A stretch of 64,000 nt of DNA from a virus (IMGVR_UViG_3300042401_002002); one strand, 5' to 3'; shown: positions 1,275 through 57,430, counted from the stretch's first letter. A program made the numbers and translations. Notes: generated by a model from the letters alone, not told the origin.

Positions 1275-1430
1275 TTATCTTGAAAAAGTCACTAAAGAAT
1301 TAAAATAAAAATTTCGTTTAGCATGATTTATTTTTTCTTCTATTGTTAAGTCATAAGGTTTATTAAAACCTGCAAGTAGATAACTGAACGCCTTAAGTGA
1401 TATATCAATGTTTGATATGTTTAATTTCAT
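1275..1430 (-). CDS. MKL-family microprotein (51 aa)
   Basis: MKLNISNIDISLKAFSYLLAGFNKPYDLTIEEKINHAKRNFYFNSLVTFSR. Confidence 0.75.
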   Translation of the reverse strand: MKLNISNIDISLKAFSYLLAGFNKPYDLTIEEKINHAKRNFYFNSLVTFSR

Positions 1431-1600
1431 CTTTTTAAAATAAATAAGTAATTATAGTTTGGTTTGTACATTGTAATAGCGTTTTTAATCATTTGTTCTG
1501 GAGTTGTTTTTCCAAAACCAAATTTTCTTGGAATACCACAAGCTAAATACATTTCATTTGGGTCGATGAGTGGTGAATATTTTAATATATTTAATTTCAT
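1427..1600 (-). CDS. MKL-family microprotein (57 aa)
   Basis: MKLNILKYSPLIDPNEMYLACGIPRKFGFGKTTPEQMIKNAITMYKPNYNYLFILKR. Confidence 0.8.
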   Translation of the reverse strand: MKLNILKYSPLIDPNEMYLACGIPRKFGFGKTTPEQMIKNAITMYKPNYNYLFILKR

Positions 1601-1728
1601 CTTTCGTAAATATAAATTCTGTTACAATTTTTTAAATAAAAAAACGAAAGTTCTTTATTTTCAACAAAATAAGTAAACCAAACTGAATGTTTAAACCTAC
1701 TTCCCGTTCTAACTATTGAAAGTTTCAT
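1597..1728 (-). CDS. MKL-family microprotein (43 aa)
   Basis: MKLSIVRTGSRFKHSVWFTYFVENKELSFFYLKNCNRIYIYER. Confidence 0.8.
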   Translation of the reverse strand: MKLSIVRTGSRFKHSVWFTYFVENKELSFFYLKNCNRIYIYER

Positions 1729-1847
1729 CTTAAATAAATTATTAGTTTGTTAGTTAATAATTTAATATATTTATCATGTCCATTTATTTTACGAACCAAT
1801 CCTGTATTTATAATTTTATTAGTATGTTGGAACATTTTTAATCTCAT
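1725..1847 (-). CDS. MKL-family microprotein (40 aa)
   Basis: MRLKMFQHTNKIINTGLVRKINGHDKYIKLLTNKLIIYLR. Confidence 0.8.
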   Translation of the reverse strand: MRLKMFQHTNKIINTGLVRKINGHDKYIKLLTNKLIIYLR

Positions 1848-1969
1848 CTTAAATAAATTATTACCTTGTTTCTAAATCCTTTTAAACCGTAATCGTCCTT
1901 TATTCTTTGGTAAGAAACTGAATCAATAAACTTTACATTACTTCCGTTGTTAATTATTTTAAGTTTCAT
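1844..1969 (-). CDS. MKL-family microprotein (41 aa)
   Basis: MKLKIINNGSNVKFIDSVSYQRIKDDYGLKGFRNKVIIYLR. Confidence 0.8.
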   Translation of the reverse strand: MKLKIINNGSNVKFIDSVSYQRIKDDYGLKGFRNKVIIYLR

Positions 1970-2091
1970 CTTTTGTAGATTAAAATTTGGTTTTTATATT
2001 CAAACATATATTTATATCCGATTTGACTTCTATAATAAAACATAGATTCTTTAAATTTAACAGCTACTATTTTATCTATTACCAATTTCAT
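1966..2091 (-). CDS. MKL-family microprotein (41 aa)
   Basis: MKLVIDKIVAVKFKESMFYYRSQIGYKYMFEYKNQILIYKR. Confidence 0.8.
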   Translation of the reverse strand: MKLVIDKIVAVKFKESMFYYRSQIGYKYMFEYKNQILIYKR

Positions 2092-2219
2092 CTTTCGTAA
2101 ATGTAAATTTTGTTTAAATCGTATTTATTTAAATCGTAATCATTTTGTAAACATTCGTTTATTGGTGAATATTTAAACTTGCTGTAATAGTAACTCATGT
2201 TTAGTACTTTTATTTTCAT
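2088..2219 (-). CDS. MKL-family microprotein (43 aa)
   Basis: MKIKVLNMSYYYSKFKYSPINECLQNDYDLNKYDLNKIYIYER. Confidence 0.8.
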   Translation of the reverse strand: MKIKVLNMSYYYSKFKYSPINECLQNDYDLNKYDLNKIYIYER

Positions 2220-2341
2220 TTCTTGTAAATATTTATTTCGTTTGAATAAAGTTTAATAAACATATTTGGATTATTTATTAAATGAAATAATTCACTTGTT
2301 ATAAACCAGTCATATTGGTAAATTGAATATTTAAGTTTCAT
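2216..2341 (-). CDS. MKL-family microprotein (41 aa)
   Basis: MKLKYSIYQYDWFITSELFHLINNPNMFIKLYSNEINIYKK. Confidence 0.8.
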   Translation of the reverse strand: MKLKYSIYQYDWFITSELFHLINNPNMFIKLYSNEINIYKK

Positions 2342-2484
2342 CTCAAATAAATTATTATTTCATTTAAATCATATTCTTCAATAGGAAACATTAGTAAAGG
2401 TTCAATGTCGTTATTTAAAATTAAATATCCTAATATAACTGACTCATTTATTTTACTATCTGATTGTCTTATTTCTAATTTCAT
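2338..2484 (-). CDS. MKL-family microprotein (48 aa)
   Basis: MKLEIRQSDSKINESVILGYLILNNDIEPLLMFPIEEYDLNEIIIYLR. Confidence 0.8.
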   Translation of the reverse strand: MKLEIRQSDSKINESVILGYLILNNDIEPLLMFPIEEYDLNEIIIYLR

Positions 2485-2609
2485 CTTTCTAAAATGTATA
2501 ATTTGTTTGTCATTTCAAATATTTGTTGGTAATTATTTTCAACAAGATGTCCGTAAATAGTTGTTATGTTAAAGGGAAAATCATCATGATTACTTATTTC
2601 TAATTTCAT
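2481..2609 (-). CDS. MKL-family microprotein (42 aa)
   Basis: MKLEISNHDDFPFNITTIYGHLVENNYQQIFEMTNKLYILER. Confidence 0.8.
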   Translation of the reverse strand: MKLEISNHDDFPFNITTIYGHLVENNYQQIFEMTNKLYILER

Positions 2610-2742
2610 TTTTGTAAGTGTAAATTGAATTTATATTATATTCATTATGTTTAACATAATTGTTTGAACCAATTGTAATTAATCTAAACCAAGATGTTGA
2701 TGTAAATTTTAGATGAGTATTTTCGTATAAATTAAGTTTCAT
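2590..2742 (-). CDS. MKL-family microprotein (50 aa; 1-nt shift at the junction extends the tail)
   Basis: MKLNLYENTHLKFTSTSWFRLITIGSNNYVKHNEYNINSIYTYKNEIRNK. Confidence 0.75.
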   Translation of the reverse strand: MKLNLYENTHLKFTSTSWFRLITIGSNNYVKHNEYNINSIYTYKNEIRNK

Positions 2743-2876
2743 CTTTTGTAAATTTGTAGTTGATTTATCCAGTTTTCTATATTAATCCAATTACAATCTT
2801 CTTTTAAGAATAGAATATAAATACTTAATTCATTAAAATGACTAATTGCTTTATTACTAAAAACTACAAGTTTCAT
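2739..2876 (-). CDS. MKL-family microprotein (45 aa)
   Basis: MKLVVFSNKAISHFNELSIYILFLKEDCNWINIENWINQLQIYKR. Confidence 0.8.
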   Translation of the reverse strand: MKLVVFSNKAISHFNELSIYILFLKEDCNWINIENWINQLQIYKR

Positions 2877-2896: not shown

Positions 2897-2928
2897 CAAA
2901 TCTACAATTTTTATTTAATTTAACCAAA
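2897..2928 (-). promoter_or_regulatory. Bacteroidota housekeeping-type promoter driving microprotein array 1
   Basis: Minus strand TTTG-N20-TAGATTTG, 20 nt upstream of the first ATG. Confidence 0.7.
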
Positions 2929-2947: not shown

Positions 2948-3643
2948 ATGGCTCAAGTTGGTTGTACGTCTGGTTCGGTTTTGGTTGATTCTACTAACCG
3001 TTATTCATCAAATAATAGTGTTACTGTAACTACTAACCCTAGTAATATTGATGACCAAGAAACTACTACAACATCTTCTGATACAGCTGGTCAAACAACA
3101 TCAAATTCAACACCTGGTGGAACTGACCCTAATGATGCACCTAAAGTACCTATTGTTAATGTAACACCTGTTGAAACTACCACAAATACTGTTGTTTTAT
3201 TACCTGTTACTGATTTAACAGGTTTGTTAGATAATGAAGTTTTAATTAGATGTTCTGTTGGTTTATATAAAACAACAACTAATCCTGTTACAGGTGGTAC
3301 TATAGTTATTGATTTCGGTTATATACCTAAAGGTGGTTCAAATGGTGATTTTAGACCATATTCTTCACAACAAATTAATGTATCTTCTGATTTTAATTCA
3401 ATAGGCTATAATAATGCTTTTTATAATTCTGAATTTGGTACAGGAATTACCCCTACATTTGATTTTGTTAATAATAAAGTAGTAAGAGTTGAATTTGTTC
3501 ATCAAATGTATGATTATTTAGCTTATGCTAATACTGATGCAACTTATTTTAATAATCTTATTGAAAAATTTGCTGTTAGAATTAATTCTATTAATACATC
3601 TTCAAAAAATATAGGTGTTGCTGCTGTAATCGTATTCTTTTAA
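2948..3643 (+). CDS. Hypothetical Thr/Ser/Asn-rich protein, possibly virion-associated
   Basis: ORF track, 231 aa; upstream CTATTTA motif shared with structural genes. Confidence 0.6.
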   Translation: MAQVGCTSGSVLVDSTNRYSSNNSVTVTTNPSNIDDQETTTTSSDTAGQTTSNSTPGGTDPNDAPKVPIVNVTPVETTTNTVVLLPVTDLTGLLDNEVLIRCSVGLYKTTTNPVTGGTIVIDFGYIPKGGSNGDFRPYSSQQINVSSDFNSIGYNNAFYNSEFGTGITPTFDFVNNKVVRVEFVHQMYDYLAYANTDATYFNNLIEKFAVRINSINTSSKNIGVAAVIVFF

Positions 3644-3707
3644 TTTTGTTTATTCAATAATTTTTATTAGATTACAAAATCAACATAAGTTTTAAACTTT
3701 TAATAAC

Positions 3708-4001
3708 ATGTTTATTTATTTAATTTCAAACCAAAACGGTTTTTATAAGATTGGTGTTTCTAAAAACCCTGATAAAAGAATAAAATCAATGGAAACAGGG
3801 AATCCGGATGATTTGATTATCCTTTATAGGTATACTACTAAACAAGCACATACAATAGAAAGAATTTTACATAGAATGTTTGAATCTTATAGAGTTAAAT
3901 TAGAGTGGTTTGAGTTACCTATTTATGAAGTACGTAATTTTTTATACAATTGTTCTAAAATAGAATGTAATCTAAATTATTTGGAAGAAAATAAAATTTA
4001 A
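3708..4001 (+). CDS. T5orf172/MUG113-like GIY-YIG domain protein
   Basis: IYLI...YKIGVSKNPDKRIKSMETGN...E..LH......EWF motif. Confidence 0.8.
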   Translation: MFIYLISNQNGFYKIGVSKNPDKRIKSMETGNPDDLIILYRYTTKQAHTIERILHRMFESYRVKLEWFELPIYEVRNFLYNCSKIECNLNYLEENKI

Positions 4002-4005
4002 TATT

Positions 4006-4305
4006 ATGAAAATTCAAAAAGTTAAAGGATTTAGGTTAAACAAACATTATTTTAAACTGTATTTGTTTGAAATTTTAATCATGTTAACGGTAGATTTAGG
4101 TTGTTACATAAGTTTAATTACTTTAGCTTATGATAAAAACTTTGGTTTGTTTTTTAAGAACAAAAGACAGAAATCTTATGGAATAGAATTTAATTTTGTT
4201 GACAGAAATACAGTTAACGAGAAAATGTATATATCTGTTTATGAATATAATAATATTCAAAATAACAAAACTAAAGTTATTAATAAGTTATTTCCTATTA
4301 AATAG
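4006..4305 (+). CDS. Hypothetical protein
   Basis: ORF track, 99 aa, 4 nt after the previous gene. Confidence 0.5.
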   Translation: MKIQKVKGFRLNKHYFKLYLFEILIMLTVDLGCYISLITLAYDKNFGLFFKNKRQKSYGIEFNFVDRNTVNEKMYISVYEYNNIQNNKTKVINKLFPIK

Positions 4306-4422
4306 AAATATCTGGTTATAAACAATAAAATAATCCTTAGCTTCTTCGTTATTCTGAATAATAGAATAAATCCAGTAATCTTTTAGGCTTGCATAAACAT
4401 AAGGTTCTATTTGAAGTTTCAT
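4288..4422 (-). CDS. MKL-family microprotein (44 aa)
   Basis: MKLQIEPYVYASLKDYWIYSIIQNNEEAKDYFIVYNQIFLFNRK. Confidence 0.75.
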   Translation of the reverse strand: MKLQIEPYVYASLKDYWIYSIIQNNEEAKDYFIVYNQIFLFNRK

Positions 4423-4426
4423 TTTT

Positions 4427-4564
4427 TTATTTGCGTTTAAGTAAAAATATTTTATTTGTTATTATACCGAAATATTTAGCATTATTATCATTTTGAATTA
4501 TTGAATAAAAGTAGTGATTTTCATCAAATATGTTATATTGGTCTTTAAGAAATATAAGTTTCAT
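4427..4564 (-). CDS. MKL-family microprotein (45 aa)
   Basis: MKLIFLKDQYNIFDENHYFYSIIQNDNNAKYFGIITNKIFLLKRK. Confidence 0.78.
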   Translation of the reverse strand: MKLIFLKDQYNIFDENHYFYSIIQNDNNAKYFGIITNKIFLLKRK

Positions 4565-4749
4565 TTTTTTAATATCATTAAAAGGTTGCAATCAAATTCA
4601 TCTACGTTTAACCATGTATAGGAACCACTTATACTATAATGATATTCAAAGTCAATACATAGATTATAATAAAAGTTACCGACCTTGAATTCATTAGGTG
4701 TTGAACCAGGTCGGTTTCCTTGTGTTGGATAGATAATTTTAAGTTTCAT
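4561..4749 (-). CDS. MKL-family microprotein (62 aa)
   Basis: ORF track; MKLKII...CNLLMILKK; the only family member long enough to appear in the track. Confidence 0.8.
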   Translation of the reverse strand: MKLKIIYPTQGNRPGSTPNEFKVGNFYYNLCIDFEYHYSISGSYTWLNVDEFDCNLLMILKK

Positions 4750-4886
4750 CTTTCTAATATTAATAAACTGTTATAAAACCCTTTGATATTTGTAAAGGTT
4801 AGAATCCCTAAATATTCAAGTTGAATAGATGTTGTTTCAAAACCTATAAATTTGTAATCTTCTGTTACAGTTGTATCTAATTTCAT
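4746..4886 (-). CDS. MKL-family microprotein (46 aa)
   Basis: MKLDTTVTEDYKFIGFETTSIQLEYLGILTFTNIKGFYNSLLILER. Confidence 0.8.
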   Translation of the reverse strand: MKLDTTVTEDYKFIGFETTSIQLEYLGILTFTNIKGFYNSLLILER

Positions 4887-5041
4887 CTTTTATAAATTAA
4901 TATTTCGTTTCTACTACCAGAAATTAATTCGTAATAAATATCTAAATCAAACAACATTATTTTATTACTATCTGATTCACTTCTTTTAAAATACAAATGT
5001 TCACCTTTCGATTTAATATTATAAAATATATCTAATTTCAT
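4883..5041 (-). CDS. MKL-family microprotein (52 aa)
   Basis: MKLDIFYNIKSKGEHLYFKRSESDSNKIMLFDLDIYYELISGSRNEILIYKR. Confidence 0.8.
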   Translation of the reverse strand: MKLDIFYNIKSKGEHLYFKRSESDSNKIMLFDLDIYYELISGSRNEILIYKR

Positions 5042-5169
5042 CTTTTATAAATATATATGTTATTGCGCCAATCTTCAAAAGTATCTCTTTTTAACTTAAA
5101 TAAAACTTGATAGATATAACCTCTATCGAATTCTATTGATTTACCGTAGTTATAAATTTTTAATTTCAT
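5038..5169 (-). CDS. MKL-family microprotein (43 aa)
   Basis: MKLKIYNYGKSIEFDRGYIYQVLFKLKRDTFEDWRNNIYIYKR. Confidence 0.8.
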   Translation of the reverse strand: MKLKIYNYGKSIEFDRGYIYQVLFKLKRDTFEDWRNNIYIYKR

Positions 5170-5294
5170 CTTTTATAAATTATGATTTCATTGTACCAAC
5201 CAACAAAATTATCATTTTCCAAGCCAAATAGAACTCGATAGATATAACTTCTACCGAATTCCAAATGTGTTTCTCTGTCAACAAGTAATATCAT
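5166..5294 (-). CDS. MKL-family microprotein (42 aa)
   Basis: MILLVDRETHLEFGRSYIYRVLFGLENDNFVGWYNEIIIYKR. Confidence 0.8.
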   Translation of the reverse strand: MILLVDRETHLEFGRSYIYRVLFGLENDNFVGWYNEIIIYKR

Positions 5295-7024
5295 TTCCCC
5301 TCAAAAGTGTTGATAATATCCTTCGGGTCCACCACGATTTGTCTGAAGAATCTAGGTTCGTTAATTATTTTACATTCAATTCCACATGAAATAATAACAA
5401 CTTTTTTGAAACCTGATAAATCTAATGTATCACAATAACCATCGGTTAAGATTAATAAGTTTTCTCTACCAAAGTTTTGTTTTACGTAATTAATACCTGG
5501 CATTAATTCGGTACCACCGTAAATATCGTGTAGTTGTTTAAGATTTCTAATATCTTTTTGACTTTTGATTTTTACTATGTTTTTTTCATTAACTACAGTA
5601 TCACAGAAGACTAGATTACCAACATAATTATCTTTTATACAGAAACCTAATATAGGTTCAACGCAACCACCCATACTTCCACTAACATCACACACAATAT
5701 TTAATGACTTAATATCATAAAACCTACCTTTAACAATAAATTCACTATCACTGTGTTTTTTGTTGTTTTTCTTGTAAGTTCTGTTTAATGAACCACTACC
5801 TTTTAATTTATTTACTGTACTAAAGATAACCTTTAAGAAGTTTTCTTTTTGTGGTGTGATTTGTTTCATTAATTCATCTACAAACCCTGTATCAACACCT
5901 CTTGCTTTACAATAAGCATCAATGTTTCGCATCCTATCTGCAATTTCTTCTGGTGATATTTCATCTTCATCACTTGATGTAAAATCATCTAATGATTGGA
6001 AGTTTTTACCACCTCCACCACTTGGGTTGTTTTTGTCAACTAAATATCTTAGTGCATATAAATCTAATGTACCTGTATATCTATCATCTTGTACATAAGT
6101 GATATTGTCATTATTTTTAATAATGTTTAGGTAGTCGTGTGATTTAATATGAACTTTATAAGTTTGATTATCTTTTAAGATTCTATCTCTAACAACATCA
6201 TAACCTATTGTATCACATTCACTCTGTAGTTTTTTAATATGTTCATCAAAAAATTGATACAGTTGTTCAAATACTAAATTAGAGTTATTTTCACCTTTAT
6301 CATAACCAGCTTCTAAAAAAGGTTCTAAATGAATACCTGACCCACATTTTTCCCAGTTTGATGGGAATATATAATGTTTATACGGGTTTTCTTCGTCAGG
6401 ATATGATTTTGGGTCATAATTAGGGTTAATTTCTAATTCTTTTATTATTTCACCCATTATTCTAATATTATTAGATAATTTATCAAATCTTTTCTTTGAT
6501 TCTTGGTTATCTGGGTTTTTTTGAAGATAATTAGATAATGTTTCTAATTTATCAGTTGATTGTAATAAATCAAGTTTAATTGTATCAAGTGGGGAGTCTT
6601 GAAATATCAAACTAATATGGTCACGTAATGCAACTTGGAACCTTTCAGCTCTATATTGGTATTGTATATTGTAGTTGATAATAGCATCAGTAACAATATT
6701 ACATTTACTTCTTTGAACCTCATTTGTAAAACCATACAGACGTTGTAAGTGTGCTGATTTGATGTGCATTAACTCATGGAAAATTAAATATGTAATTTCT
6801 GAGTTTTCTAATTTATTAATGAAATGTTCATTATAAGAAAATAAGAAATTTTTAAACTTAGCAGATACACAAGCAGTATCAATATCGGTTCTTTCTTTGA
6901 ACTCAATTAAGGTTGTGAAATAACCAAAATAACGATGTGCTGTTAATGATGAATGTGTTAATAAATCAATAATAGCGTTTGTTAATTTAGCATTTTTAAT
7001 TTTTACTGGAGATTCGTATGACAT
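5291..7024 (-). CDS. Metallopeptidase-like / vWA domain protein (DUF2201-like)
   Basis: N-terminal HELMH (HExxH); C-terminal MIDAS DVSGS, GGTE, LTDG. Confidence 0.85.
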   Translation of the reverse strand: MSYESPVKIKNAKLTNAIIDLLTHSSLTAHRYFGYFTTLIEFKERTDIDTACVSAKFKNFLFSYNEHFINKLENSEITYLIFHELMHIKSAHLQRLYGFTNEVQRSKCNIVTDAIINYNIQYQYRAERFQVALRDHISLIFQDSPLDTIKLDLLQSTDKLETLSNYLQKNPDNQESKKRFDKLSNNIRIMGEIIKELEINPNYDPKSYPDEENPYKHYIFPSNWEKCGSGIHLEPFLEAGYDKGENNSNLVFEQLYQFFDEHIKKLQSECDTIGYDVVRDRILKDNQTYKVHIKSHDYLNIIKNNDNITYVQDDRYTGTLDLYALRYLVDKNNPSGGGGKNFQSLDDFTSSDEDEISPEEIADRMRNIDAYCKARGVDTGFVDELMKQITPQKENFLKVIFSTVNKLKGSGSLNRTYKKNNKKHSDSEFIVKGRFYDIKSLNIVCDVSGSMGGCVEPILGFCIKDNYVGNLVFCDTVVNEKNIVKIKSQKDIRNLKQLHDIYGGTELMPGINYVKQNFGRENLLILTDGYCDTLDLSGFKKVVIISCGIECKIINEPRFFRQIVVDPKDIINTFEGK

Positions 7025-7358: not shown

Positions 7359-7599
7359 CTTTTATTTCTTTAGTAATCGGTTTACTATTTTGAAATAAAT
7401 GTTTTGTTATTTTAGCGTTGTTAGGTACATATAATTTATAACCAACATAAAACCAAATTATTATTTCTGTTATTCCAGTTAAACCTCGTAAGGTTGTGTC
7501 TGTATGCCTAATATTGGTAGCTAAATAACATAAATATTCTGATAGTGCAACTATCAAAGGATACAGTAGCATCCAAAGTACGAAGGGTAGGTTTTTCAT
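7294..7599 (-). CDS. Hypothetical membrane protein (2 TM)
   Basis: Two hydrophobic segments; its ATG overlaps the TGA of the upstream microprotein. Confidence 0.65.
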   Translation of the reverse strand: MKNLPFVLWMLLYPLIVALSEYLCYLATNIRHTDTTLRGLTGITEIIIWFYVGYKLYVPNNAKITKHLFQNSKPITKEIKDAIEETSKRIAKNHSKFKSRL

Positions 7600-7730
7600 C
7601 TTTTATAAATTAATATATTGTTCGTCCAATTTTCAGAATTAATCCAATTTTCATTAGTCTTAAGAAATTTAGTATATAACTTAGTGTTGTAAAGGTATAT
7701 ACCATCAGTATTGTTTATGTCTAGTTTCAT
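7596..7730 (-). CDS. MKL-family microprotein (44 aa), singleton
   Basis: MKLDINNTDGIYLYNTKLYTKFLKTNENWINSENWTNNILIYKR; ATGA overlaps at both ends. Confidence 0.8.
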   Translation of the reverse strand: MKLDINNTDGIYLYNTKLYTKFLKTNENWINSENWTNNILIYKR

Positions 7731-8055: not shown

Positions 8056-8175
8056 TTATCTTGCAAATATATTAATTTGGTTGAGATAATTTAAGTCAAC
8101 TAATCCTTGAATATGATTGTTGCGTAAAACAACATAATTTTTAACCTGTTTTACACGAAATATTTTTAATTTCAT
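8056..8175 (-). CDS. MKL-family microprotein (39 aa), singleton
   Basis: MKLKIFRVKQVKNYVVLRNNHIQGLVDLNYLNQINIFAR. Confidence 0.75.
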   Translation of the reverse strand: MKLKIFRVKQVKNYVVLRNNHIQGLVDLNYLNQINIFAR

Positions 8176-8195
8176 CTTTCCAATATTTTATATTC

Positions 8196-8222
8196 AACGC
8201 AAACCTAACTAAAAGGTTTCAA
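8196..8222 (-). promoter_or_regulatory. ECF-sigma-like promoter overlapping a TAnnTTTG box
   Basis: TTGAAACCTTTTAGTTAGGTTTGCGTT (TGAAAC-N16-CGTT); near-copy at 12965-12991. Confidence 0.65.
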
Positions 8223-8275
8223 TAAAACAAAAATAATTGTTGGAAATCTTTTAAATAACCAACAATTATTATTTT

Positions 8276-8401
8276 TTATCTAACAAAAATGCCTAACCAA
8301 TTACAATGATTTTTAGTAAGATTGGTAGTTCCTAAAACAGTGCTTTTATAAAAAACTGTTGAAGTGAACGAAATTCCAAAGTCTGATTTTTTAAGTTTCA
8401 T
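8276..8401 (-). CDS. MKL-family microprotein (41 aa), singleton
   Basis: MKLKKSDFGISFTSTVFYKSTVLGTTNLTKNHCNWLGIFVR. Confidence 0.75.
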   Translation of the reverse strand: MKLKKSDFGISFTSTVFYKSTVLGTTNLTKNHCNWLGIFVR

Positions 8402-11400: not shown

Positions 11401-11983
11401 ACTGATATTGATGTATGTCACCCATTAATAATAAATCACCTTCAAAGTCTTCTAAACTAACATATTTAGAATCTTCAAATTCTTGACCAAAAAATGTTCT
11501 TGAACCATTAATAGGGTCATGAAATAAATCAATAACTAATTTATCTGTTGGTTTGGTAAAACCAGGTTCTAAAACCCAAGGTGATGTCTTGTCGCTATGA
11601 TGCCATACTGACCAAATTACATTTTCATCATTGTAAAATGTGGTCGCATCGTAATATTTAACCTTTGGGTTGTTAATCAAATTGATAACAGTATTTACTG
11701 AATCAACACGATTAACAGCTTTCATGTTAAGGTCATGGTTACCTAATGTAACTCGAACTTCAGCAATTTTAGATAGTTCATTCAAGAACCAACCACCAAG
11801 TTTTTTGGTTTCATTGTTTACTTTATTAAAATCATGAAATAAATCACCAACTATAACTATTCTGTCAGGTTTAACCTCGATTAGTTTTTTGATTGTGTTT
11901 TCAAGAACTTGTTTTTGTCTTGCTTGATACTCAAGTTTATTCATTAAATGAATATCTGAGAGGTGTGCTATGGTTTTTATCAT
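8405..11983 (-). CDS. Fused SbcD/Mre11 nuclease and SbcC/Rad50 ATPase (gp47-gp46-like)
   Basis: Phosphoesterase motifs SDIH, GDLFH, GNHD, GDIH; Walker A GENAVGKT; long coiled coil with CPSC zinc hook; signature GSGME, Walker B FLDE, H-loop IIEH. Confidence 0.93.
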   Translation of the reverse strand: MIKTIAHLSDIHLMNKLEYQARQKQVLENTIKKLIEVKPDRIVIVGDLFHDFNKVNNETKKLGGWFLNELSKIAEVRVTLGNHDLNMKAVNRVDSVNTVINLINNPKVKYYDATTFYNDENVIWSVWHHSDKTSPWVLEPGFTKPTDKLVIDLFHDPINGSRTFFGQEFEDSKYVSLEDFEGDLLLMGDIHQYQLFHNKDKSIKGAYPSSLYQNNYGESVDKHGFILWNISDVKNIKHELIEIENEYSYINYYLKGTGVDETIDYDNLNIKLKSSEVKKYTHVKVDWTDDAINFTSENWRKIKLFIQSKYPTVVEVKKKENKIRNNKIVENDFVRKSLVNITNYDVQQQVFKQHLLNKNYEPEFIDKVIEIDNKINKRLGASNSIERKDWRIESFYIDNYRSHADRFEMNWDKNNGLYQIMGENAVGKTNLLSGILYLLHGKTLETLKRETNGDNRFINNKRDLDYCESGAIINVDETRFSLVRRTERKWDRSKTKITACPTTLKINLIDSNGEIINQTDEEKSKNQEYLSNIIGSFDDFLALYLVNADTLNNLLSMDESVFMDSILKYSGLDVFERKLAEYKDYKKELYKKEEKIVLKVEDELVKIQLIKDEIQTNKDKIKELNDSLVDREKRLKTGQEYKENELKKLHPIDKALANTSLDKLKEELNVLIEQKDSYFVSQKELEQKISILRDTYNIERYNTLCGIKDSLQNEFIGVKSNIKETTNKVDSVRNDIAVCNGNILLLNRSIDSFKTDITKELGNLESKIKLKEQEIGLINKQIDSKINNILSEIEILDKSKICPSCDRELGKAQLVIIQNKINDKKTEINQLEESKNNTPEILSILETIKCFENNIKEQDTKEILSLKDKISESLNKIKNEESKKVGFENDIKLLEANIIRFKQDLEDTSVKMSENQELIVEIEKEKEEFDKRQQLVNQKNNIPLLIENVDLKIGNNKNTYDRVVIENNKVIENEKVQKVIDTYDARLKTLQDEVNGIKANVSFIENNVITTLTNNIKTINDRISKFQEQELEEQINTCYVECIHRDGVPKLLLLNMREDINNEIHNLINDLCNFNVYFDENMTLKMYSYNDNTAIQNVIGGSGMERTFISIILRLALRSINNKSLGNFLFLDEVTGKLVGDSVTNFFELIHKIKEKIEKIVIIEHAYSDELNVDYSLTVTADEKGCSLISIN

Positions 11984-12099
11984 TTTCTTGGAAATATTAT
12001 TAGTGCGTTGTGGTTGGATTTAGTAGTAAAGTTTTTTATACGTAACATTTCGATTTTATAATCTAGACCACTTAATAAACCTGTTATGTATAATTTCAT
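11980..12099 (-). CDS. MKL-family microprotein (39 aa)
   Basis: MKLYITGLLSGLDYKIEMLRIKNFTTKSNHNALIIFPRK. Confidence 0.8.
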   Translation of the reverse strand: MKLYITGLLSGLDYKIEMLRIKNFTTKSNHNALIIFPRK

Positions 12100-12227
12100 C
12101 TTTTTGTTATTATTAATCGGTTGTAGTGAATTTCGGGTATATATCTTTCAGTTTTATTATTAATTCTATGAAAAACTCCACTATTATTGAATAGTACAAA
12201 GTTTGAGTTAGTTATTTTTAATTTCAT
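12096..12227 (-). CDS. MKL-family microprotein (43 aa)
   Basis: MKLKITNSNFVLFNNSGVFHRINNKTERYIPEIHYNRLIITKR. Confidence 0.8.
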   Translation of the reverse strand: MKLKITNSNFVLFNNSGVFHRINNKTERYIPEIHYNRLIITKR

Positions 12228-12343
12228 CTTCTTTCAAAAATTAATAACATGTTATGATTTCTTTTGTTTTGTAAAGTGAATTCAGATGTTATCTCACGTT
12301 TCCAGTTAAACGTTTTCAATAAAGCAGATATATCTAATTTCAT
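12224..12343 (-). CDS. MKL-family microprotein (39 aa)
   Basis: MKLDISALLKTFNWKREITSEFTLQNKRNHNMLLIFERR. Confidence 0.8.
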   Translation of the reverse strand: MKLDISALLKTFNWKREITSEFTLQNKRNHNMLLIFERR

Positions 12344-12549
12344 CTTTTAAATTTTTTATATAATTTATATAAAATATAACTTTTTAGTGAAAATCCAAAT
12401 ATAACTAAAATTATTATAAAATAACTATTATCTATTTGGAATATTAGATAGATATCTAATAAGCAAGCCACTAATAAGAATATTGATAACATAATACCTA
12501 GTTTCTTAAAGAAATTGAATTCTAATCTTTTGATTGTTTCTATTGTCAT
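12340..12549 (-). CDS. Small membrane protein (2 TM) embedded in array 3
   Basis: ORF track, 69 aa; ATGA overlaps at both ends; ends FKR. Confidence 0.7.
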   Translation of the reverse strand: MTIETIKRLEFNFFKKLGIMLSIFLLVACLLDIYLIFQIDNSYFIIILVIFGFSLKSYILYKLYKKFKR

Positions 12550-12677
12550 CTTGTGTAAATTGTTATGTAATTAATAAAATTATTTATATTTTTACCTGGT
12601 TTATGACTACCTTTCATAAAATTATAATCAGGACTTGTTAAGAAAAAGCTATTGGGTTTACTTATATTTAATTTCAT
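12546..12677 (-). CDS. MKL-family microprotein (43 aa)
   Basis: MKLNISKPNSFFLTSPDYNFMKGSHKPGKNINNFINYITIYTR. Confidence 0.8.
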   Translation of the reverse strand: MKLNISKPNSFFLTSPDYNFMKGSHKPGKNINNFINYITIYTR

Positions 12678-12693
12678 CTTTTGTAAATTATTA

Positions 12694-12807
12694 TTATCTG
12701 TCAAGAATTAATAAACGATTATAATTTATTTTTAAATCACGTCCAGAAGTTATCATGTAATAAGGTGTTATATCACCTAAATAAGGTTTCCAAATTTTTA
12801 ATTTCAT
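12694..12807 (-). CDS. MKL-family microprotein (37 aa)
   Basis: MKLKIWKPYLGDITPYYMITSGRDLKINYNRLLILDR. Confidence 0.78.
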   Translation of the reverse strand: MKLKIWKPYLGDITPYYMITSGRDLKINYNRLLILDR

Positions 12808-12944
12808 CTTTTAAATATTACCATTGCGTTACTCCATCTTTTTATCTTAATTTTACTTTTTTGTTTTCCAACTAAAACATGATAATAAAGATTATCACTA
12901 ACAAAATTAACTTTATACGTACTATTATCTATTTCAAGTTTCAT
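12804..12944 (-). CDS. MKL-family microprotein (46 aa)
   Basis: MKLEIDNSTYKVNFVSDNLYYHVLVGKQKSKIKIKRWSNAMVIFKR. Confidence 0.8.
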   Translation of the reverse strand: MKLEIDNSTYKVNFVSDNLYYHVLVGKQKSKIKIKRWSNAMVIFKR

Positions 12945-12964
12945 CTTTCTAATATTTTATCTTC

Positions 12965-44345: not shown

Positions 44346-44349
44346 TGTA

Positions 44350-45774: not shown

Positions 45775-45920
45775 CTTTTTCTAACTAACATTAAATTTAA
45801 TAAACCACATTCATTGAAATTGCTATAAATGTAATTGGTTGAATATTGTTGAGTAATTTCTTTGTACAACCAATATTCTTTATTGAATTCTCGTCTTGTT
45901 ATTTCAATTCCAAGTTTCAT
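45771..45920 (-). CDS. MKL-family microprotein (49 aa)
   Basis: MKLGIEITRREFNKEYWLYKEITQQYSTNYIYSNFNECGLLNLMLVRKR. Confidence 0.8.
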   Translation of the reverse strand: MKLGIEITRREFNKEYWLYKEITQQYSTNYIYSNFNECGLLNLMLVRKR

Positions 45921-46060
45921 CTTTTTCTAATAATTAACATATCTAATAACATATCACTATTAAGATAAATTTATTTATCATCAAATTTATTTATTTTTTT
46001 ATATATCCAATATTCGCTATCAAACTGTAATGTCGGATTTATGTCTGTTATAAGTTTCAT
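45917..46060 (-). pseudogene. MKL-family microprotein with an in-frame TAA at codon 30
   Basis: MKLITDINPTLQFDSEYWIYKKINKFDDK*IYLNSDMLLDMLIIRKR; TAA at 45971-45973. Confidence 0.75.
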
Positions 46061-46203
46061 CTTTTTCTAATAATTAATATATCCATTAACATATTACGTT
46101 CATCGTTTAGTAGATAATTGTTTAATTTATTTATTGATTTAAACATCCAATATTCGTTATTGAAAGATAAATTTATTCCAGTTTTTTCAATCCAAAGTTT
46201 CAT
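46057..46203 (-). CDS. MKL-family microprotein (48 aa)
   Basis: MKLWIEKTGINLSFNNEYWMFKSINKLNNYLLNDERNMLMDILIIRKR. Confidence 0.8.
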   Translation of the reverse strand: MKLWIEKTGINLSFNNEYWMFKSINKLNNYLLNDERNMLMDILIIRKR

Positions 46204-46325
46204 CTTTTTCTAATAGTTAACATATCACATTTATGTAAACCTATACGTTTTTCTTGAATAAGTTTATAAATAAGATTATATTTATTGAAAGTTAAATCAA
46301 TATTTACGTTTATACCAAGTTTCAT
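46200..46325 (-). CDS. MKL-family microprotein (41 aa)
   Basis: MKLGINVNIDLTFNKYNLIYKLIQEKRIGLHKCDMLTIRKR. Confidence 0.8.
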   Translation of the reverse strand: MKLGINVNIDLTFNKYNLIYKLIQEKRIGLHKCDMLTIRKR

Positions 46326-48643: not shown

Positions 48644-49552
48644 TTATATTTTTGAATATAATGAATTAACATTATATATACGTTTATAACCAACATCATG
48701 TTTTATATTATAAGTTTGGTTCATTAAGAATGTTCTGATACCTGATTGGTTTAATTCTTTAAAATTACTAAAGCAATCATCTAAAAAAGTATCACATTTT
48801 AATTGTTTTAAAATATCAACTTTACTTTTACCATTTGTCGTGTACACAGGTACACAAGGTAAATTATTTTTTGAAATCCACTCTTCTGTCCATGAAGATG
48901 GTATTGACCTAGATGTTACATAAAAATCAGGTTCAAATGTTAAGTTAGTTGTAATTGGTTTTATATTTAACCAAAATTCTTTATCATTTTTAATTTTATT
49001 CCATAAAACATTATATTCATACGGAAAGTTCCAGTGTGATTGGTCAAAACTATTATTAGTATTTATACCTTCTTTTTTAGCTAACTCAATAAATGAAGCT
49101 GAAAAGTCTGCTAAAACACCATCAATATCTAAACCTATTTTTTTATTGGATAAATATTTATGTTCCCTGTCATCAATAAAATTACTGTTTTCATACCCAT
49201 CAATCAAAAAACCAATATTACAAGCAGCTAATGCTAGATGATATAAACCTGATTCAGGGTCGAAATCTTCACCATTTTTATATGCTTCAATATGTCTAAG
49301 AAGTGAACCTATTGTTTCTGAAGCTTTTAACCCTTTTTTCCAATTATTAGAACCGTCAGAAATTATATTCCCGTCATTATCTTTAATACTATATTTATTT
49401 TTACCATATAATAACCCTTTAGATATTTCTCGTGTTAATGATGATGGTATTAGATTATAAGGTAATTTACCTTCGTTATATCTTAATCCTTTATTTTCCA
49501 TATATTTATTATTTAACAACACAAACCTACATTTTTTTATTTTAAAAAACAA
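48644..49552 (-). CDS. dATP/dGTP diphosphohydrolase-like (DUF5664) domain fused to a HAD nucleotidase-like domain (start probably 49501)
   Basis: RYNEGK...YGKNKY...NWKKG...SLLRH...DPESGLYHLALAACN; then LDIDGVLADF, TSR, K, LDD. Confidence 0.8.
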   Translation of the reverse strand: MFFKIKKCRFVLLNNKYMENKGLRYNEGKLPYNLIPSSLTREISKGLLYGKNKYSIKDNDGNIISDGSNNWKKGLKASETIGSLLRHIEAYKNGEDFDPESGLYHLALAACNIGFLIDGYENSNFIDDREHKYLSNKKIGLDIDGVLADFSASFIELAKKEGINTNNSFDQSHWNFPYEYNVLWNKIKNDKEFWLNIKPITTNLTFEPDFYVTSRSIPSSWTEEWISKNNLPCVPVYTTNGKSKVDILKQLKCDTFLDDCFSNFKELNQSGIRTFLMNQTYNIKHDVGYKRIYNVNSLYSKI

Positions 49553-50336: not shown

Positions 50337-50933
50337 ATGAATTACCTTCCTTCTAGGAAAGCTAGTCAAGTCCTTGGGTTACACCCAAATACTCTTAGAA
50401 AATATGCAGACAACGGAACAATACATACAATTAAAAACAACGCTGGTCAAAGACTGTATGACGTTCAGTCATACATCAACTTGTCCTTGTCTGTTGATGA
50501 ATTCGTGTGTTATTGTAGAGTCTCTTCTAAAAAACAACAAGATGATTTACAGCGACAAGTCGCTTACATGTCTTCCTTGTACCCTAACGCAACCATTATT
50601 CAAGACATCGGTTCAGGTGTCAACTACAAACGAAAAGGTCTTCAAACCTTACTGGAACGACTTATCAAAGGAGATAAGTTCACACTTGTGGTTGCCCACA
50701 AAGACAGACTTGTTAGGTTCGGATTTGAACTCTTTGAGTTCCTCTTTAACCAAAACAATGGAAAAATCTTGGTTCTCAACATTAACTCAGGAGACCCTCA
50801 GACCGAACTCACAAACGACATTCTCAGAATTCTGTACGATTACTCGTCCAGCGTTCCAAGACTTAGAGAGTACTATAATAAAATCAAGGAAGATTTCCCT
50901 GAATATAACAAAGAAACAGAAGAAAAAACTTGA
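50337..50933 (+). CDS. tnpA: IS607 transposase (MerR-like HTH plus serine recombinase)
   Basis: LGLHPNTLRKY...GQRLY; YCRVSS..Q..DL.RQ; DIGSG.N..RKGL; HKDRL.RFGF. Confidence 0.95.
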   Translation: MNYLPSRKASQVLGLHPNTLRKYADNGTIHTIKNNAGQRLYDVQSYINLSLSVDEFVCYCRVSSKKQQDDLQRQVAYMSSLYPNATIIQDIGSGVNYKRKGLQTLLERLIKGDKFTLVVAHKDRLVRFGFELFEFLFNQNNGKILVLNINSGDPQTELTNDILRILYDYSSSVPRLREYYNKIKEDFPEYNKETEEKT

Positions 50934-52011
50934 TGTTTGGTCTGGCGTTGCCAGATATGTTTACAACAGAACTGTTGATTATATTTCATTAAAAACCGGT
51001 TTCGGTGAACCACTTGAAAAATGGAATCTTGTTTTTAATGAAATTAACAAACAACTACCTGAATGGTGTAACACAACACCATATCAAATTAAAAAGATGG
51101 CTTGTAAAGATGCGTTCAAAGCAAGAACATCTTCTTTAGCTTTGTTGAAAAACAAAAAGATTAAGTTCTTTAAGTTAAACTATAGAACGAAGTTAAATAA
51201 AAACAATATGTATATACCAAAAGATGCAGTTAAATCTAAAGGAATATACCATACACTGTTAGGTGAAACTAAATTTAAAGAGAATCTTCCAATCATAGAA
51301 TATGATTGCAGGTTAATAGAAGAACATGGTGAGTACTTCTTATGTGTACCATACAAACAAACTATAGCTAAATTCAACAACCAAGAAGTGCTTTCAAAAG
51401 CTGTAGCTATAGACCAAGGAGTGAGAAGTTTTATAACTTATTACTCAGAGGATTCAGTTGGTAAGATAGGTAATGAAGACCATGTAATACTATTTAATCT
51501 TTGCAAACATATTGATGATTTAATATCAAAAACCAAGTTAAGTAAAGGGTTTAAAAACCGTAAAAAACGTAAGTCTTATAAAAAAGCAATGAATCGTTTA
51601 AAAGCAAAGTTACGCAACTTAGTTGATGAATTACACTGGAAGTCAATTAACTTTTTAGTTAATAATTACAATGTAATAATATGTCCTAACTTTAAAGTTA
51701 GCAACATGGTATTAGATGATGTTAAACGAAAGATAAGTAGCAAAACAGTACGCAACATGTTAAACTTTAGGTTTTATGTTTTCAAGCAACGCTTGAAACT
51801 TAAATGTAAAGAGAGAGGTTGTGTATTGATTGAAACAAGTGAAGAGTTTACAAGTCAGATAGCAAGTTGGACAGGTGAGAGAGTTAAAGACATAGGTGGT
51901 TCAAAAGAGATTAAAAGCGAAGGTGTTGTAGTTGATAGAGATTACAACGGAGCTAGAAACATATTTATCAAGTGTATCCAAGAGAACTTGGATACATCAA
52001 AGATAAATTAA
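50374..52011 (+). CDS. tnpB: IS607-associated TnpB (start uncertain; overlaps tnpA)
   Basis: ARYVYN, AIDQGVRSF, ICPNF, SEEFTSQ, DRDYNGARNI. Confidence 0.9.
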   Translation: MGYTQILLENMQTTEQYIQLKTTLVKDCMTFSHTSTCPCLLMNSCVIVESLLKNNKMIYSDKSLTCLPCTLTQPLFKTSVQVSTTNEKVFKPYWNDLSKEISSHLWLPTKTDLLGSDLNSLSSSLTKTMEKSWFSTLTQETLRPNSQTTFSEFCTITRPAFQDLESTIIKSRKISLNITKKQKKKLDVWSGVARYVYNRTVDYISLKTGFGEPLEKWNLVFNEINKQLPEWCNTTPYQIKKMACKDAFKARTSSLALLKNKKIKFFKLNYRTKLNKNNMYIPKDAVKSKGIYHTLLGETKFKENLPIIEYDCRLIEEHGEYFLCVPYKQTIAKFNNQEVLSKAVAIDQGVRSFITYYSEDSVGKIGNEDHVILFNLCKHIDDLISKTKLSKGFKNRKKRKSYKKAMNRLKAKLRNLVDELHWKSINFLVNNYNVIICPNFKVSNMVLDDVKRKISSKTVRNMLNFRFYVFKQRLKLKCKERGCVLIETSEEFTSQIASWTGERVKDIGGSKEIKSEGVVVDRDYNGARNIFIKCIQENLDTSKIN

Positions 52012-55739: not shown

Positions 55740-55892
55740 TGTATAAAAATTTACTGTTTACAATTTAGAAAAAATAAATTAAATAAACAAATAAAATGTT
55801 GGTTATTTTGTAAAAATATTTTAATTTTCTTGTTTATGTTTACTTGAAATTATAACAATTATTTGTAACAGTTACTTGCAACAGTTACTTGT

Positions 55893-56016
55893 AACTAACG
55901 TAGCGGTGCTTGTGAAAGTTGGTTTCACTAAAGTTTAATAGAATCACAATGTTTGTGTTTATCACTAAACTGTCCACGAAGTACAATGACCAACTTTCAT
56001 AAGCACAGTGTTACCA
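55893..56016 (-). other. attC-like recombination site
   Basis: Minus strand TGGTAAC...GTTAGTT ends enclosing an 18-bp inverted repeat with one mismatch (55906-55923 / 55989-56006); starts 7 nt after a stop codon. Confidence 0.6.
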
Positions 56017-56023
56017 AATGTTT

Positions 56024-56497
56024 TTATTGTTGTTGAAAATGTTGTTTATAATATTTAGCTGAATTTTGAAAAGCGGTTAATCCACCTTCATGTTTGTTTT
56101 TATATTTATTTACCATGTTGATTATTTCAGCATTTAATTTAGTCTTGAATGTTTGTCTAGGTACTTTACATTTATAAAAATTAAAACACGCATCATCATA
56201 TTTCGATAATATTCTTTCTATTTTAGCGTTTAATAAGATACTGTCAATTGTATCTTTACTATACAATTCTTCTAATTCAATTTTACTTTTTTCAATATCA
56301 TCAATTATTTTGTCTAGTTTATTGTTTTTGTTTTTAAAATATGTTTGAATAAACGGTATTATGATAACTAAAATAGAGATAACAGCAATAATCCAAAATT
56401 TAATTTCAGTTTCGTTATTTGATTCTTTTAATTTAACTATTTCATTAAAAGCTATTCTTAAACTATCTTTCATTGTTGTTACGTTTTTCAAGTTCAT
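56024..56497 (-). CDS. Hypothetical single-TM protein (cassette-like)
   Basis: ORF track, 157 aa. Confidence 0.65.
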   Translation of the reverse strand: MNLKNVTTMKDSLRIAFNEIVKLKESNNETEIKFWIIAVISILVIIIPFIQTYFKNKNNKLDKIIDDIEKSKIELEELYSKDTIDSILLNAKIERILSKYDDACFNFYKCKVPRQTFKTKLNAEIINMVNKYKNKHEGGLTAFQNSAKYYKQHFQQQ

Positions 56498-56816
56498 CTA
56501 ATAATTTAATAAAATCTGTATTATCATATCCTTCGTTTATATTATTAAACTTTTCACGAATTTTATTTATAATTTTAATCTTGTCTTTCAGTGTTATATT
56601 TTTACCACTATTGACATAAGTTAATTTATTTATTTTATTGTCTAGGGATTCAACAACAAGTGGGTTATTTTTTTGTTGTAATAAATACTTATAATAATCT
56701 TCACTTAAATTTTCAATACTAGCCATAATTTTATTTATTTCTATTTCTGTCTTTAAAATATTTGGTAACATTAAATATTTGCGAAGGTGGGTTATTAAAG
56801 ATTGAATAAAGTTCAT
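56463..56816 (-). CDS. Hypothetical protein
   Basis: ORF track, 117 aa; TTTG-N20-TATATTTG promoter upstream. Confidence 0.65.
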   Translation of the reverse strand: MNFIQSLITHLRKYLMLPNILKTEIEINKIMASIENLSEDYYKYLLQQKNNPLVVESLDNKINKLTYVNSGKNITLKDKIKIINKIREKFNNINEGYDNTDFIKLLDELEKRNNNER

Positions 56817-56917
56817 AATTTAGGTTTTAAAGTTAATTAAGATTGAAGAACAAATATATGAATAAAAACCCACTTTTGCAAATATTTTGTTAGTTATAAA
56901 TAACTGTTATAAGTTTG

Positions 56918-57055
56918 TTATTTTGTAAAAATAAGTAAATAATTTAAACCTAAATTATTTAATGGGATTACATTAGAATAATTACCTATACATAATACAT
57001 ATTCATAACTAATTTTAAACTTGTATTCTTCTTCTATATAATATTTTAGTTTCAT
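56918..57055 (-). CDS. MKL-family microprotein (45 aa)
   Basis: MKLKYYIEEEYKFKISYEYVLCIGNYSNVIPLNNLGLNYLLIFTK. Confidence 0.78.
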   Translation of the reverse strand: MKLKYYIEEEYKFKISYEYVLCIGNYSNVIPLNNLGLNYLLIFTK

Positions 57056-57195
57056 CTTTTAAATATTATTAAATGTCCTGAATGAGTTTTAATAGTTACA
57101 ACATTGTCTTTTATTTTATTTTCTATCTTTTTATAAATCAAACCTTCACTAAATGTAAAGATAGAACTAGTTAAATTTCCAATTTTTAATTTCAT
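57052..57195 (-). CDS. MKL-family microprotein (47 aa)
   Basis: MKLKIGNLTSSIFTFSEGLIYKKIENKIKDNVVTIKTHSGHLIIFKR. Confidence 0.8.
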   Translation of the reverse strand: MKLKIGNLTSSIFTFSEGLIYKKIENKIKDNVVTIKTHSGHLIIFKR

Positions 57196-57326
57196 CTTTT
57201 AAATAATTTAAGGTCGTTTAATAAATAATTGTAAGATTTTGTTACATCTTCATCTATAATTAAATTATAAATACCACCTTCGGTAAATTTCCAACTTGAT
57301 ATTAAATCAGATATAAGAAGTTTCAT
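57192..57326 (-). CDS. MKL-family microprotein (44 aa)
   Basis: MKLLISDLISSWKFTEGGIYNLIIDEDVTKSYNYLLNDLKLFKR. Confidence 0.8.
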   Translation of the reverse strand: MKLLISDLISSWKFTEGGIYNLIIDEDVTKSYNYLLNDLKLFKR

Positions 57327-57430
57327 CTTTTAAATGTTAATAATTTGTTATTTAATGTATTAGCTGATAAAAGTAATTGAAAAATAACCTTATCAAATAT
57401 TATGTGGTTACTGGCTCTTTTAAGTTTCAT
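57323..57430 (-). CDS. MKL-family microprotein (35 aa)
   Basis: MKLKRASNHIIFDKVIFQLLLSANTLNNKLLTFKR. Confidence 0.78.
   Translation of the reverse strand: MKLKRASNHIIFDKVIFQLLLSANTLNNKLLTFKR

Follow-up and report, generated by a model that had tools for sequence, protein, structure and literature searches.

The stretch of DNA analysed here (64,000 nucleotides of the virus IMGVR_UViG_3300042401_002002, referred to below as the window) carries a family of 49 very short open reading frames (ORFs) on its minus strand. These ORFs, called units in the following, take up approximately 10% of the window, are all co-oriented with the minus-strand replication genes and form seven arrays (of 12, 7, 6, 8, 4, 5 and 4 units) and three singletons. 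A preliminary description of the window had proposed this layout, and every array, singleton and unit was found again at the same coordinates by a listing of small ORFs and by a family hidden Markov model (HMM), which was seeded with motif-filtered small ORFs and iterated once. Across the whole window, the HMM detected 47 minus-strand stop-to-stop segments with E < 0.05 and none on the plus strand; two weaker units (46057-46203 and 57323-57430) reached E values of about 0.1. Likewise, a filter for the two terminal motifs was passed by 32 of the 113 small minus-strand ORFs of the window versus none of its 96 small plus-strand ORFs. The gaps between positions 1200 and 5400, for example, are filled by minus-strand ORFs of 40-62 amino acids (aa) that start with MKLxI and end with I[YF]x[RK], and no family unit occurs in the plus-strand gene blocks (e.g. 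2948-4305, 13046-15430 and 37769-43920). The units are distributed as follows.

1275-2876, minus strand: array 1, 12 units of 40-57 aa, with 10 ATGA junctions and one 20-nucleotide overlap
2590-2742, minus strand: frameshifted unit of array 1, with a junction frameshift and an altered C-terminus, preceding the 20-nucleotide overlap
4288-5294, minus strand: array 2, seven units, ATGA-coupled to the upstream 577-aa DUF2201/vWA-like gene (5291-7024)
7596-7730, minus strand: singleton unit, joined by ATGA to a 99-aa ORF and, on its other side, to a 101-aa ORF
8056-8175, minus strand: singleton unit, preceded by a promoter-like site of its own (8200-8231)
8276-8401, minus strand: singleton unit, a weaker member (HMM E value 0.017)
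11980-12944, minus strand: array 3, six units and an embedded, unrelated 69-aa membrane ORF
12340-12549, minus strand: the 69-aa ORF inside array 3, with two hydrophobic helices, membrane-like, not a family member
15828-16971, minus strand: array 4, eight units, six of them exactly 43 aa long at a spacing of 128 nucleotides
43937-44711, minus strand: array 5, four diverged units and an unrelated 80-aa ORF (44350-44592), ATGA-coupled to the primase gene
45643-46325, minus strand: array 6, five units upstream of the primase gene, with a variant C-terminal motif (...RKR)
45971-46060, minus strand: truncated unit of array 6, 29 aa
56918-57430, minus strand: array 7, four units

Most adjacent units are chained by overlapping stop and start codons, as had been proposed. 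At 32 unit-to-unit junctions this overlap consists of the four nucleotides ATGA, and eight further ATGA junctions couple units to ordinary genes, the partners being the genes of the 577-aa vWA-like protein, the 1192-aa Metallophos protein and the primase as well as the ORFs of 99 and 101 aa and of 69 and 80 aa. The last unit of array 3, for instance, is coupled in this way to the Metallophos (SbcCD-like) gene (11980/11983). The 69-aa ORF embedded in the same array is ATGA-coupled on both sides, and its C-terminus (KFKR) resembles that of a family unit. Arrays 1, 2, 4, 5 and 7 finish with TAA or TAG, without a coupled downstream gene.

With a G+C content of about 26% in the window, approximately 9% of random codons are stops at the base composition of the minus strand, and a single 43-codon frame would be open with a probability of about 0.02. 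On this basis, 48 open frames of 40-60 codons in register cannot be due to chance, which agrees with the emphasis that the preliminary description had placed on the 48 open frames among the 49 units.

Evidence that the units are protein-coding was obtained from six gap-free orthologous unit pairs, for which contigs of related phages from other metagenomes (L004, L005, L006/L007 and L008) were available. These pairs differ by 46 synonymous and 48 non-synonymous changes, and the pooled ratio of non-synonymous to synonymous substitution rates (dN/dS) is 0.20 (bootstrap 0.12-0.32). When the same alignments were read in the +1 and +2 frames, the ratio lay around 1 (0.90 and 1.30, respectively); neighbouring ordinary genes gave values of 0.04-0.14. 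The substitutions in the units are distributed over codon positions 1, 2 and 3 as 26/20/49 (p = 6e-4). Conserved residues are written with varied synonymous codons, for example Leu3 (CTT 47%, TTA 35%, CTA 12%), the C-terminal Tyr (TAC 47%, TAT 53%) and Asn36 (AAC 43%, AAT 57%), and the internal codon usage of the units matches that of large ORFs. Units that end with TAA and have no overlap still carry the C-terminal motif, so that its independence from the overlap, as claimed before, holds. Furthermore, position -3 of the junction consensus AAAAG-ATG-AAA is occupied by A, a nucleotide that favours initiation in Flavobacterium when it stands there (PMC6847099). Judged by these substitution patterns, the units are real genes under purifying selection, and this selection acts at the amino acid level over the whole unit, its middle included. 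The earlier view of the units as translated microgenes is thus borne out.

To describe the family itself, 145 distinct members were pooled from the window, from related loci and from the matches of a profile search. Their median length is 44 aa, and the conserved positions are M1, K2 (97%), L3 (97%), I5, F13 (92%), [ST]16, Y19, L22, W34, N36 (89%), [IL]38, I40, [YF]41 and R43 (90%), giving the core pattern MKLxI...F..S..Y..L...W.N.[IL].I[YF].R. The motifs described before were correct and are sharpened by this larger sample. Length variation falls in two loops. Conservation thus spans the whole unit, in the manner of a small hydrophobic core, and not its ends alone, and the units are one homologous family with a conserved core. 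The proteins look soluble and mildly basic (median isoelectric point 9.35, median net charge +3, median grand average of hydropathy, GRAVY, -0.26); Trp, Tyr, Ile and Arg are enriched, and Cys is absent in 97 of the 145 members. A type I toxin or small membrane peptide was also considered and rejected, as the members contain no hydrophobic stretch and have the negative median GRAVY just given.

AlphaFold2, whose model derives from co-variation among the paralogues, predicts a small strand-helix-loop-strand fold, with the variation in length and sequence expected mainly in the two loops. The predicted local distance difference test (pLDDT) score was 83.7 with 48 paralogues and 95.6 with 132 paralogues; in the latter model (predicted template modelling score, pTM, 0.68) the strands comprise residues 4-12 and 37-42 and the helix residues 17-22. 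The terminal motifs, for which short strands had been suggested, would accordingly flank a short helix together with a variable loop. Neither model gave a significant match in fold searches (Foldseek and VIA-align wide against the PDB, BFVD and the ESM Atlas), the top rows being generic strand-helix-strand fragments and protein G B1 variants with E values above 3; an ESM Atlas feature search likewise gave no usable match. A homodimer prediction with two copies scored 0.00 in a program in which the fold itself was uncertain.

The preliminary description had not recognised the family, and it remained without a named relative in all collections searched. Eight representative units gave nothing above threshold in Pfam (best E value 0.013, under the gathering score) and nothing better than an E value of 0.046 in PHROGs, and a tblastn search with a single unit as query found no match among 50,697 phage records. 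A word-based look-up with array 4 (15828-16971) matched only the genome of this phage. An exhaustive HMMER profile search of 1.84 billion cluster representatives returned just 42 at E < 1e-3, all of which are 41-52 aa long and carry the family pattern; longer proteins containing the domain were not found among these representatives. The nearest cultured relative of the phage is Flavobacterium phage immuto (primase, 31% identity), against which the family profile gave no match, and a primase-based search yielded one distant IMG/VR contig (L001, 32% identity) that also lacks family members. No description of such a family was found in the literature.

The carriers comprise the 308,574-bp phage contig to which the window belongs, near-identical copies of it and further related contigs, found in JGI, ENA and Logan assemblies, that form a small clade. 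Two contigs from other samples (L002 and L003) are 100% identical to the phage of the window, and arrays extend beyond the window beside the genes for thioredoxin and dihydrofolate reductase (DHFR; L002, 18207-19693). Some related contigs are denser in units, with 24 units in 8.4 kb in L011 and 20 units in L012. As far as these searches reach, the family is confined to one phage lineage and lies outside described families. What is new is the protein family together with its unusual, entirely coding junction architecture; in kind, expansions of accessory gene families are already known from the variable regions of large phages.

Within the window, the paralogues have a mean pairwise identity of about 30% and a maximum of 60%, which is reached by the pair 16099 and 16483 of array 4. 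For 19 of the 49 units the nearest paralogue is a member of the unit's own array. The expected number was 6.4 and the highest value reached in 2000 permutations was 17; this excess indicates ancient local duplication. A diversity-generating retroelement target was considered and rejected for paralogues of such low identity that differ also by indels; a reverse transcriptase was not specifically searched. Orthologues in related phages share 57-98% identity. In view of these old paralogues, the conserved core in the middle of the unit and the similarity of the orthologues, the word hypervariable, which had been used for the family, was too strong.

The clearest change concerns array 7. The contigs L006 and L007 are approximately 95% identical to the window, yet they do not contain unit 57192-57326; the difference is a clean 131-nucleotide indel between 15-nucleotide direct repeats (ATTTAAAAGATGAAA), and all frames stay intact. 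A second case was found after the primase gene, where L004 has six units versus four units and the 80-aa ORF in the window. Only two of these units are recognisably orthologous (74% and 57% identity), as against 88% identity of the primase and 98% identity of the neighbouring 432-aa protein. In L008, about four to five of the eight units of array 4 are common to both phages, with a divergence roughly that of the flanking gene. These comparisons point to birth and death of whole units at the junction, combined with ordinary purifying selection, and not to hypervariability at the residue level: the fast-varying feature is which units an array holds. An active diversification, as implied by the earlier term combinatorial library, is not supported; what varies instead is the unit content of the arrays. 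Directly downstream of array 7, a 286-aa HNH endonuclease gene of the relatives replaces the ORFs 56024-56497 and 56463-56816 of the window (window 55869-56767 versus 5721-6688 in L006, and likewise in L007).

The source of the window is a novel, AT-rich and deep-branching jumbo phage of about 308 kb from freshwater, the habitat following from the carrier data set 3300059473 of JGI, which is the Lake Mendota 20-year co-assembly (PMC11374980); its host is probably a member of the Bacteroidota. The window itself is the replication and nucleotide-metabolism part of the phage genome. It encodes a family-B DNA polymerase, a T4-type primase, a Dda-like helicase, an SNF2 helicase and an SbcCD-like nuclease as well as the start of a ribonucleotide reductase, GIY-YIG endonucleases, two TnpB-like proteins and glycosyltransferases. 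The neighbours of the arrays are the genes for PolB, the primase, the Dda-like helicase, SNF2, the SbcCD-like protein, ribonucleotide reductase, DHFR and thioredoxin. A giant eukaryotic virus was considered since a 265-kb contig with an identical unit is filed under the same Lake Mendota co-assembly. It was judged unlikely in view of the operonic ATGA coupling, the T4-type primase, the Dda-like helicase and the promoter motifs of the Bacteroidota type.

The promoter consensus of the Bacteroidota (TTTG-N17-22-TAnnTTTG; PMC6847099) was found at 17 sites versus 8 expected, and three of these sites lie directly upstream of array 1, array 3 and the unit at 8056. Sites of the sigma-70 type were not enriched (110 observed, 134 expected). 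Terminator-like hairpins numbered five in the 18 kb scanned, and the sole one within an array (5229-5263) lies inside the coding sequence of a unit; a sixth was read by eye. The sites next to the arrays are the following.

2897-2928, minus strand: promoter-like site TTTG-N20-TAGATTTG, about 20 nucleotides upstream of the first ATG of array 1
12969-13000, minus strand: promoter-like site TTTG-N20-TAGATTTG, upstream of array 3
8200-8231, minus strand: promoter-like site just upstream of the singleton at 8056
1019-1026, minus strand: second TAGATTTG site, preceding the ribonucleotide reductase gene
978-1002, minus strand: terminator-like hairpin after array 1 and a 61-aa ORF (1058-1243)
16745-16840, minus strand: sixth hairpin, terminator-like, in a non-coding gap within array 4, a perfect inverted repeat of 15 bp with a T-run behind it

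The -7 box before the arrays reads TAG[AG]TTTG, and an identical box precedes the reductase gene. The promoter-like sites therefore tentatively suggest a Bacteroidota host and a co-expression of the arrays with genes of nucleotide metabolism. The remaining arrays lack a promoter and lie downstream of larger genes. The same -7 box was also seen at the annotated start of the gene 48644-49552 (49522-49529). Furthermore, an 87-nucleotide repeat with 84% identity (8161-8247 and 12930-13014) holds the TTTG...TAG[AG]TTTG box together with the leader and the initial codons of a unit. The gap at 16745-16840 is the only sizeable non-coding gap of array 4, and its hairpin recalls the stem-loop of the T4 promoter and stem-loop (PeSL) cassettes, which are discussed below.

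Taken together, the best overall explanation, to which we give slightly better than an even chance, is a lineage-specific, expanded family of chained microgenes that is shuffled at its junctions and may encode host-directed binders. From what is established for overlapping stop and start codons, the chains would be translated by termination and reinitiation. The junction codes for the predicted C-terminal strand, the stop/start overlap and the predicted N-terminal strand and would double as a short recombination homology, through which whole units might be duplicated, deleted or moved without breaking a reading frame. Any unit would be compatible with any other unit and with any ATGA gene boundary. 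Such an exchange of units at the junction, as proposed here, would let the array content shift while the flanking core genes stay. Two other readings of the chained frames were rejected: programmed frameshifting into one polyprotein, as the junction has no slippery heptamer and up to 11 successive shifts would be needed, and recoding of TGA, as the following unit is read in the -1 frame and translation table 11 leaves the large ORFs open.

With regard to function, the units might be miniature binding domains with individual surfaces, which would be expressed early and target host proteins for takeover or counter-defence. This function is favoured tentatively, with rather less than even confidence, because of the early-type context and the many distinct, individually conserved surfaces on one scaffold, and also because of the strain-level presence and absence of units and the precedent of binding small proteins in phages (PMC11323111). 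If it applies, the set of binders would be to the phage what the multigene families are to large DNA viruses. It is possible, if doubtful, that the units go as far as a natural library of miniproteins of 44 residues with a self-closing strand-helix-strand fold, shuffled as cassettes and used early against many host targets and defences.

Several points weigh against this interpretation. The role as binder or effector is argued from analogy. The dN/dS estimate for the units is based on 94 substitutions in six units. Retained orthologues diverge like some flanking genes (in L008, about 75% nucleotide identity for both), which is not the pattern that a rapid, residue-level arms race would leave. 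Codons 2-5 are biased at the nucleotide level (AAA 98%, with CTT and ATA enriched in comparison to the genome), the last codon AGA is partly set by the ATGA overlap, and K2 and R43 are confounded with the nucleotide needs of the junction; therefore, part of the motif is not purely a protein-level feature. Finally, a G at the two respective positions of the -7 box is virtually absent in promoters of Flavobacterium johnsoniae (PMC6847099), and because of these atypical residues both the promoters and the host assignment are tentative. The Bacteroidota host assumed in the preliminary description is no more than plausible from the promoter-like motifs.

An explanation without any host target would be that the units are near-neutral or selfish cassettes, which spread via the self-compatible ATGA junction and are selected only for being foldable and non-toxic. 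The clean, unit-sized indel at the junction repeat would be expected from such cassettes, as would the placement of units between, and their coupling to, many different ordinary genes; the strongly different array content among relatives fits as well, and homology reveals no function. However, the dN/dS of 0.20, set beside the 0.04-0.14 of neighbouring genes, speaks for more selection than this, and the old, distinct paralogues, among which no copies exceed 60% identity in the window, are unlike an actively spreading element. The conserved buried core and the confidently predicted fold also suggest selection for a defined structure. In view of these points, selfish cassettes are considered rather unlikely.

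The units might also be subunits of a hetero-oligomer, such as strand-mediated rings or sheets or parts of the virion or the internal head, with coupled translation providing matched amounts. ATGA coupling is typical of subunits of complexes. The predicted 43-aa strand-helix-strand leaves its sheet edges exposed and forms little core by itself, and its two conserved terminal strands are a candidate common interface. A fixed assembly is hard to reconcile with the differing number and identity of units in close relatives, and the arrays lie in the region of replication and nucleotide metabolism behind promoter-like sites of the reductase type instead of in a structural module. This explanation is clearly unlikely.

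A further possibility is that translation itself is the function and that the chains of short cistrons serve as ribosome relays or attenuators, which would adjust how strongly or when coupled downstream genes (such as the SbcCD-like gene and the 101-aa ORF) are expressed in a host without Shine-Dalgarno initiation. Several arrays or units indeed finish in an ATGA overlap with the start of the next gene (11980/11983; 7596/7599), the first codons are biased at the nucleotide level beyond the requirement of the protein, and the junction context is rich in A with an A at -3 (PMC6847099). A relay would not account for purifying selection at the amino acid level throughout the unit, for the conserved core with its confidently predicted fold, or for arrays 1, 2, 4, 5 and 7, which finish with TAA or TAG and have no coupled gene behind them. 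It is therefore regarded as very unlikely.

Precursors of ribosomally synthesized and post-translationally modified peptides (RiPPs), which combine conserved recognition ends with a core that varies, as prochlorosins do, would resemble the units in being encoded by large tandem sets of short paralogous ORFs whose termini are conserved and whose middle varies. They are highly improbable here in view of the 97 of 145 members without Cys, the lack of a core rich in Ser, Thr or Cys, of a leader cleavage motif and of an export signal, and the spread of conserved residues as in a folded domain; moreover, no modifying enzyme was found among the neighbouring genes scanned. Non-coding repeat arrays, CRISPR-like or regulatory, with incidental open frames are suggested by the periodic conserved junction alternating with divergent stretches of 100 nucleotides, and are effectively refuted by the excess of third-position substitutions, the frame-specific dN/dS, the varied synonymous codons at conserved residues, the 48 of 49 open frames where about 9% of random codons are stops, and a junction that is degenerate and not palindromic. 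A CRISPR-like array of repeats and spacers in particular was rejected on the degenerate junction and the frame-specific coding signature.

The closest described phenomenon to the chained, junction-shuffled family proposed here is the hyperplastic regions of T4-type phages with their PeSL cassettes (Arbiol et al. 2010, PMC2839356; PMC4122927). In both cases, clusters of small ORFs that look non-essential lie between conserved genes of replication and nucleotide metabolism, their content varies in close relatives, and short motifs at the ORF boundaries drive modular gain, loss and shuffling. Unit-sized indels attributed to recombination at the boundary motif, which are a mark of PeSL regions, have a counterpart here in the 131-nucleotide indel at the 15-nucleotide repeat (L006 and L007). 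However, a PeSL consists of a non-coding promoter and a stem-loop terminator around unrelated ORFans, whereas the boundary described here is coding and the ORFs belong to one family. The units are also translationally chained, with no promoters or terminators between them apart from the hairpin at 16745-16840, and 32 junctions are 4-nucleotide coding overlaps without intergenic DNA.

In evolutionary logic, the multigene families (MGF) of large eukaryotic DNA viruses come closest. MGF110, MGF360 and MGF505 of African swine fever virus (ASFV) and the ankyrin and Bcl-2-like families of poxviruses are tandem, diverged paralogues with strain-variable copy number and a presumed or demonstrated role in host interaction. 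As in the present family, one fold was expanded in a lineage-specific manner into dozens of tandem paralogues. In contrast, the ASFV and poxvirus proteins have 100-500 aa, one promoter per gene and eukaryotic hosts, whereas the units have about 44 aa and are operonic, ATGA-coupled and located in a phage; sequence or fold relationships between the two do not exist. The internal proteins of T4, which are late and packaged into the virion, share only a cleavable N-terminal sequence for targeting to the capsid, which the prohead protease removes. They resemble the units in having a short conserved N-terminal motif on otherwise diverse small proteins of a variable locus. They differ in that the units are conserved at both ends and in the core, show no apparent conserved cleavage site and occur in a replication-region context. 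Phage proteins of less than 100 aa that bind host or phage proteins are a precedent for the proposed function (reviewed in PMC11323111). However, the small regulators and inhibitors reviewed come from diverse families, are encoded by single genes and have demonstrated targets; the scale here, with 49 units in 64 kb, is far larger.

These results show that a large share of the apparently intergenic space of big phages can consist of microgenes. In the units, a single stretch of 15-25 nucleotides would provide the conserved ends of the proteins, the overlap of stop and start and the homology for recombination, and such a shared junction would be a simple route to cassette-like evolution without dedicated enzymes. 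If the units are host-directed binders, they would represent an unusually large repertoire of phage effectors and a natural minimal scaffold; if they are moreover a shuffled library of binders, this would be a new kind of arsenal for counter-defence or takeover and a ready-made minimal binder scaffold. The units are short enough for chemical synthesis, and their fold, oligomeric state and partners are thus directly testable.

Some further genes of the phage and its relatives deserve mention. The 1209-aa family-B polymerase (19188-22817, minus strand) shares only about 26% identity, over 40% of its length, with those of the nearest deposited phages, which infect Salinibacter and Nostoc; the lineage is therefore very distant from cultured phages. 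The gene 48644-49552 (minus strand) combines the N-terminal domain of a dATP/dGTP diphosphohydrolase with an NT5C nucleotidase domain, and L004 encodes a deoxynucleotide monophosphate kinase; together, these genes hint at a non-canonical nucleotide metabolism. Beside the DNA polymerase gene, a homing-endonuclease-like gene with GIY-YIG and NUMOD1 domains (17845-19128, minus strand) is located, and a T5orf172 (GIY-YIG-like) gene (3708-4001, plus strand) lies on the opposite strand between arrays 1 and 2. Genes for TnpB/IS605-OrfB-like transposases were identified at 26253-27533 (minus strand) and 50374-52011 (plus strand) (phrog_506, E value about 1e-36). In L012, a pair of TnpB and resolvase genes directly follows a run of 17 short ORFs, and the family profile matches 13 of these.

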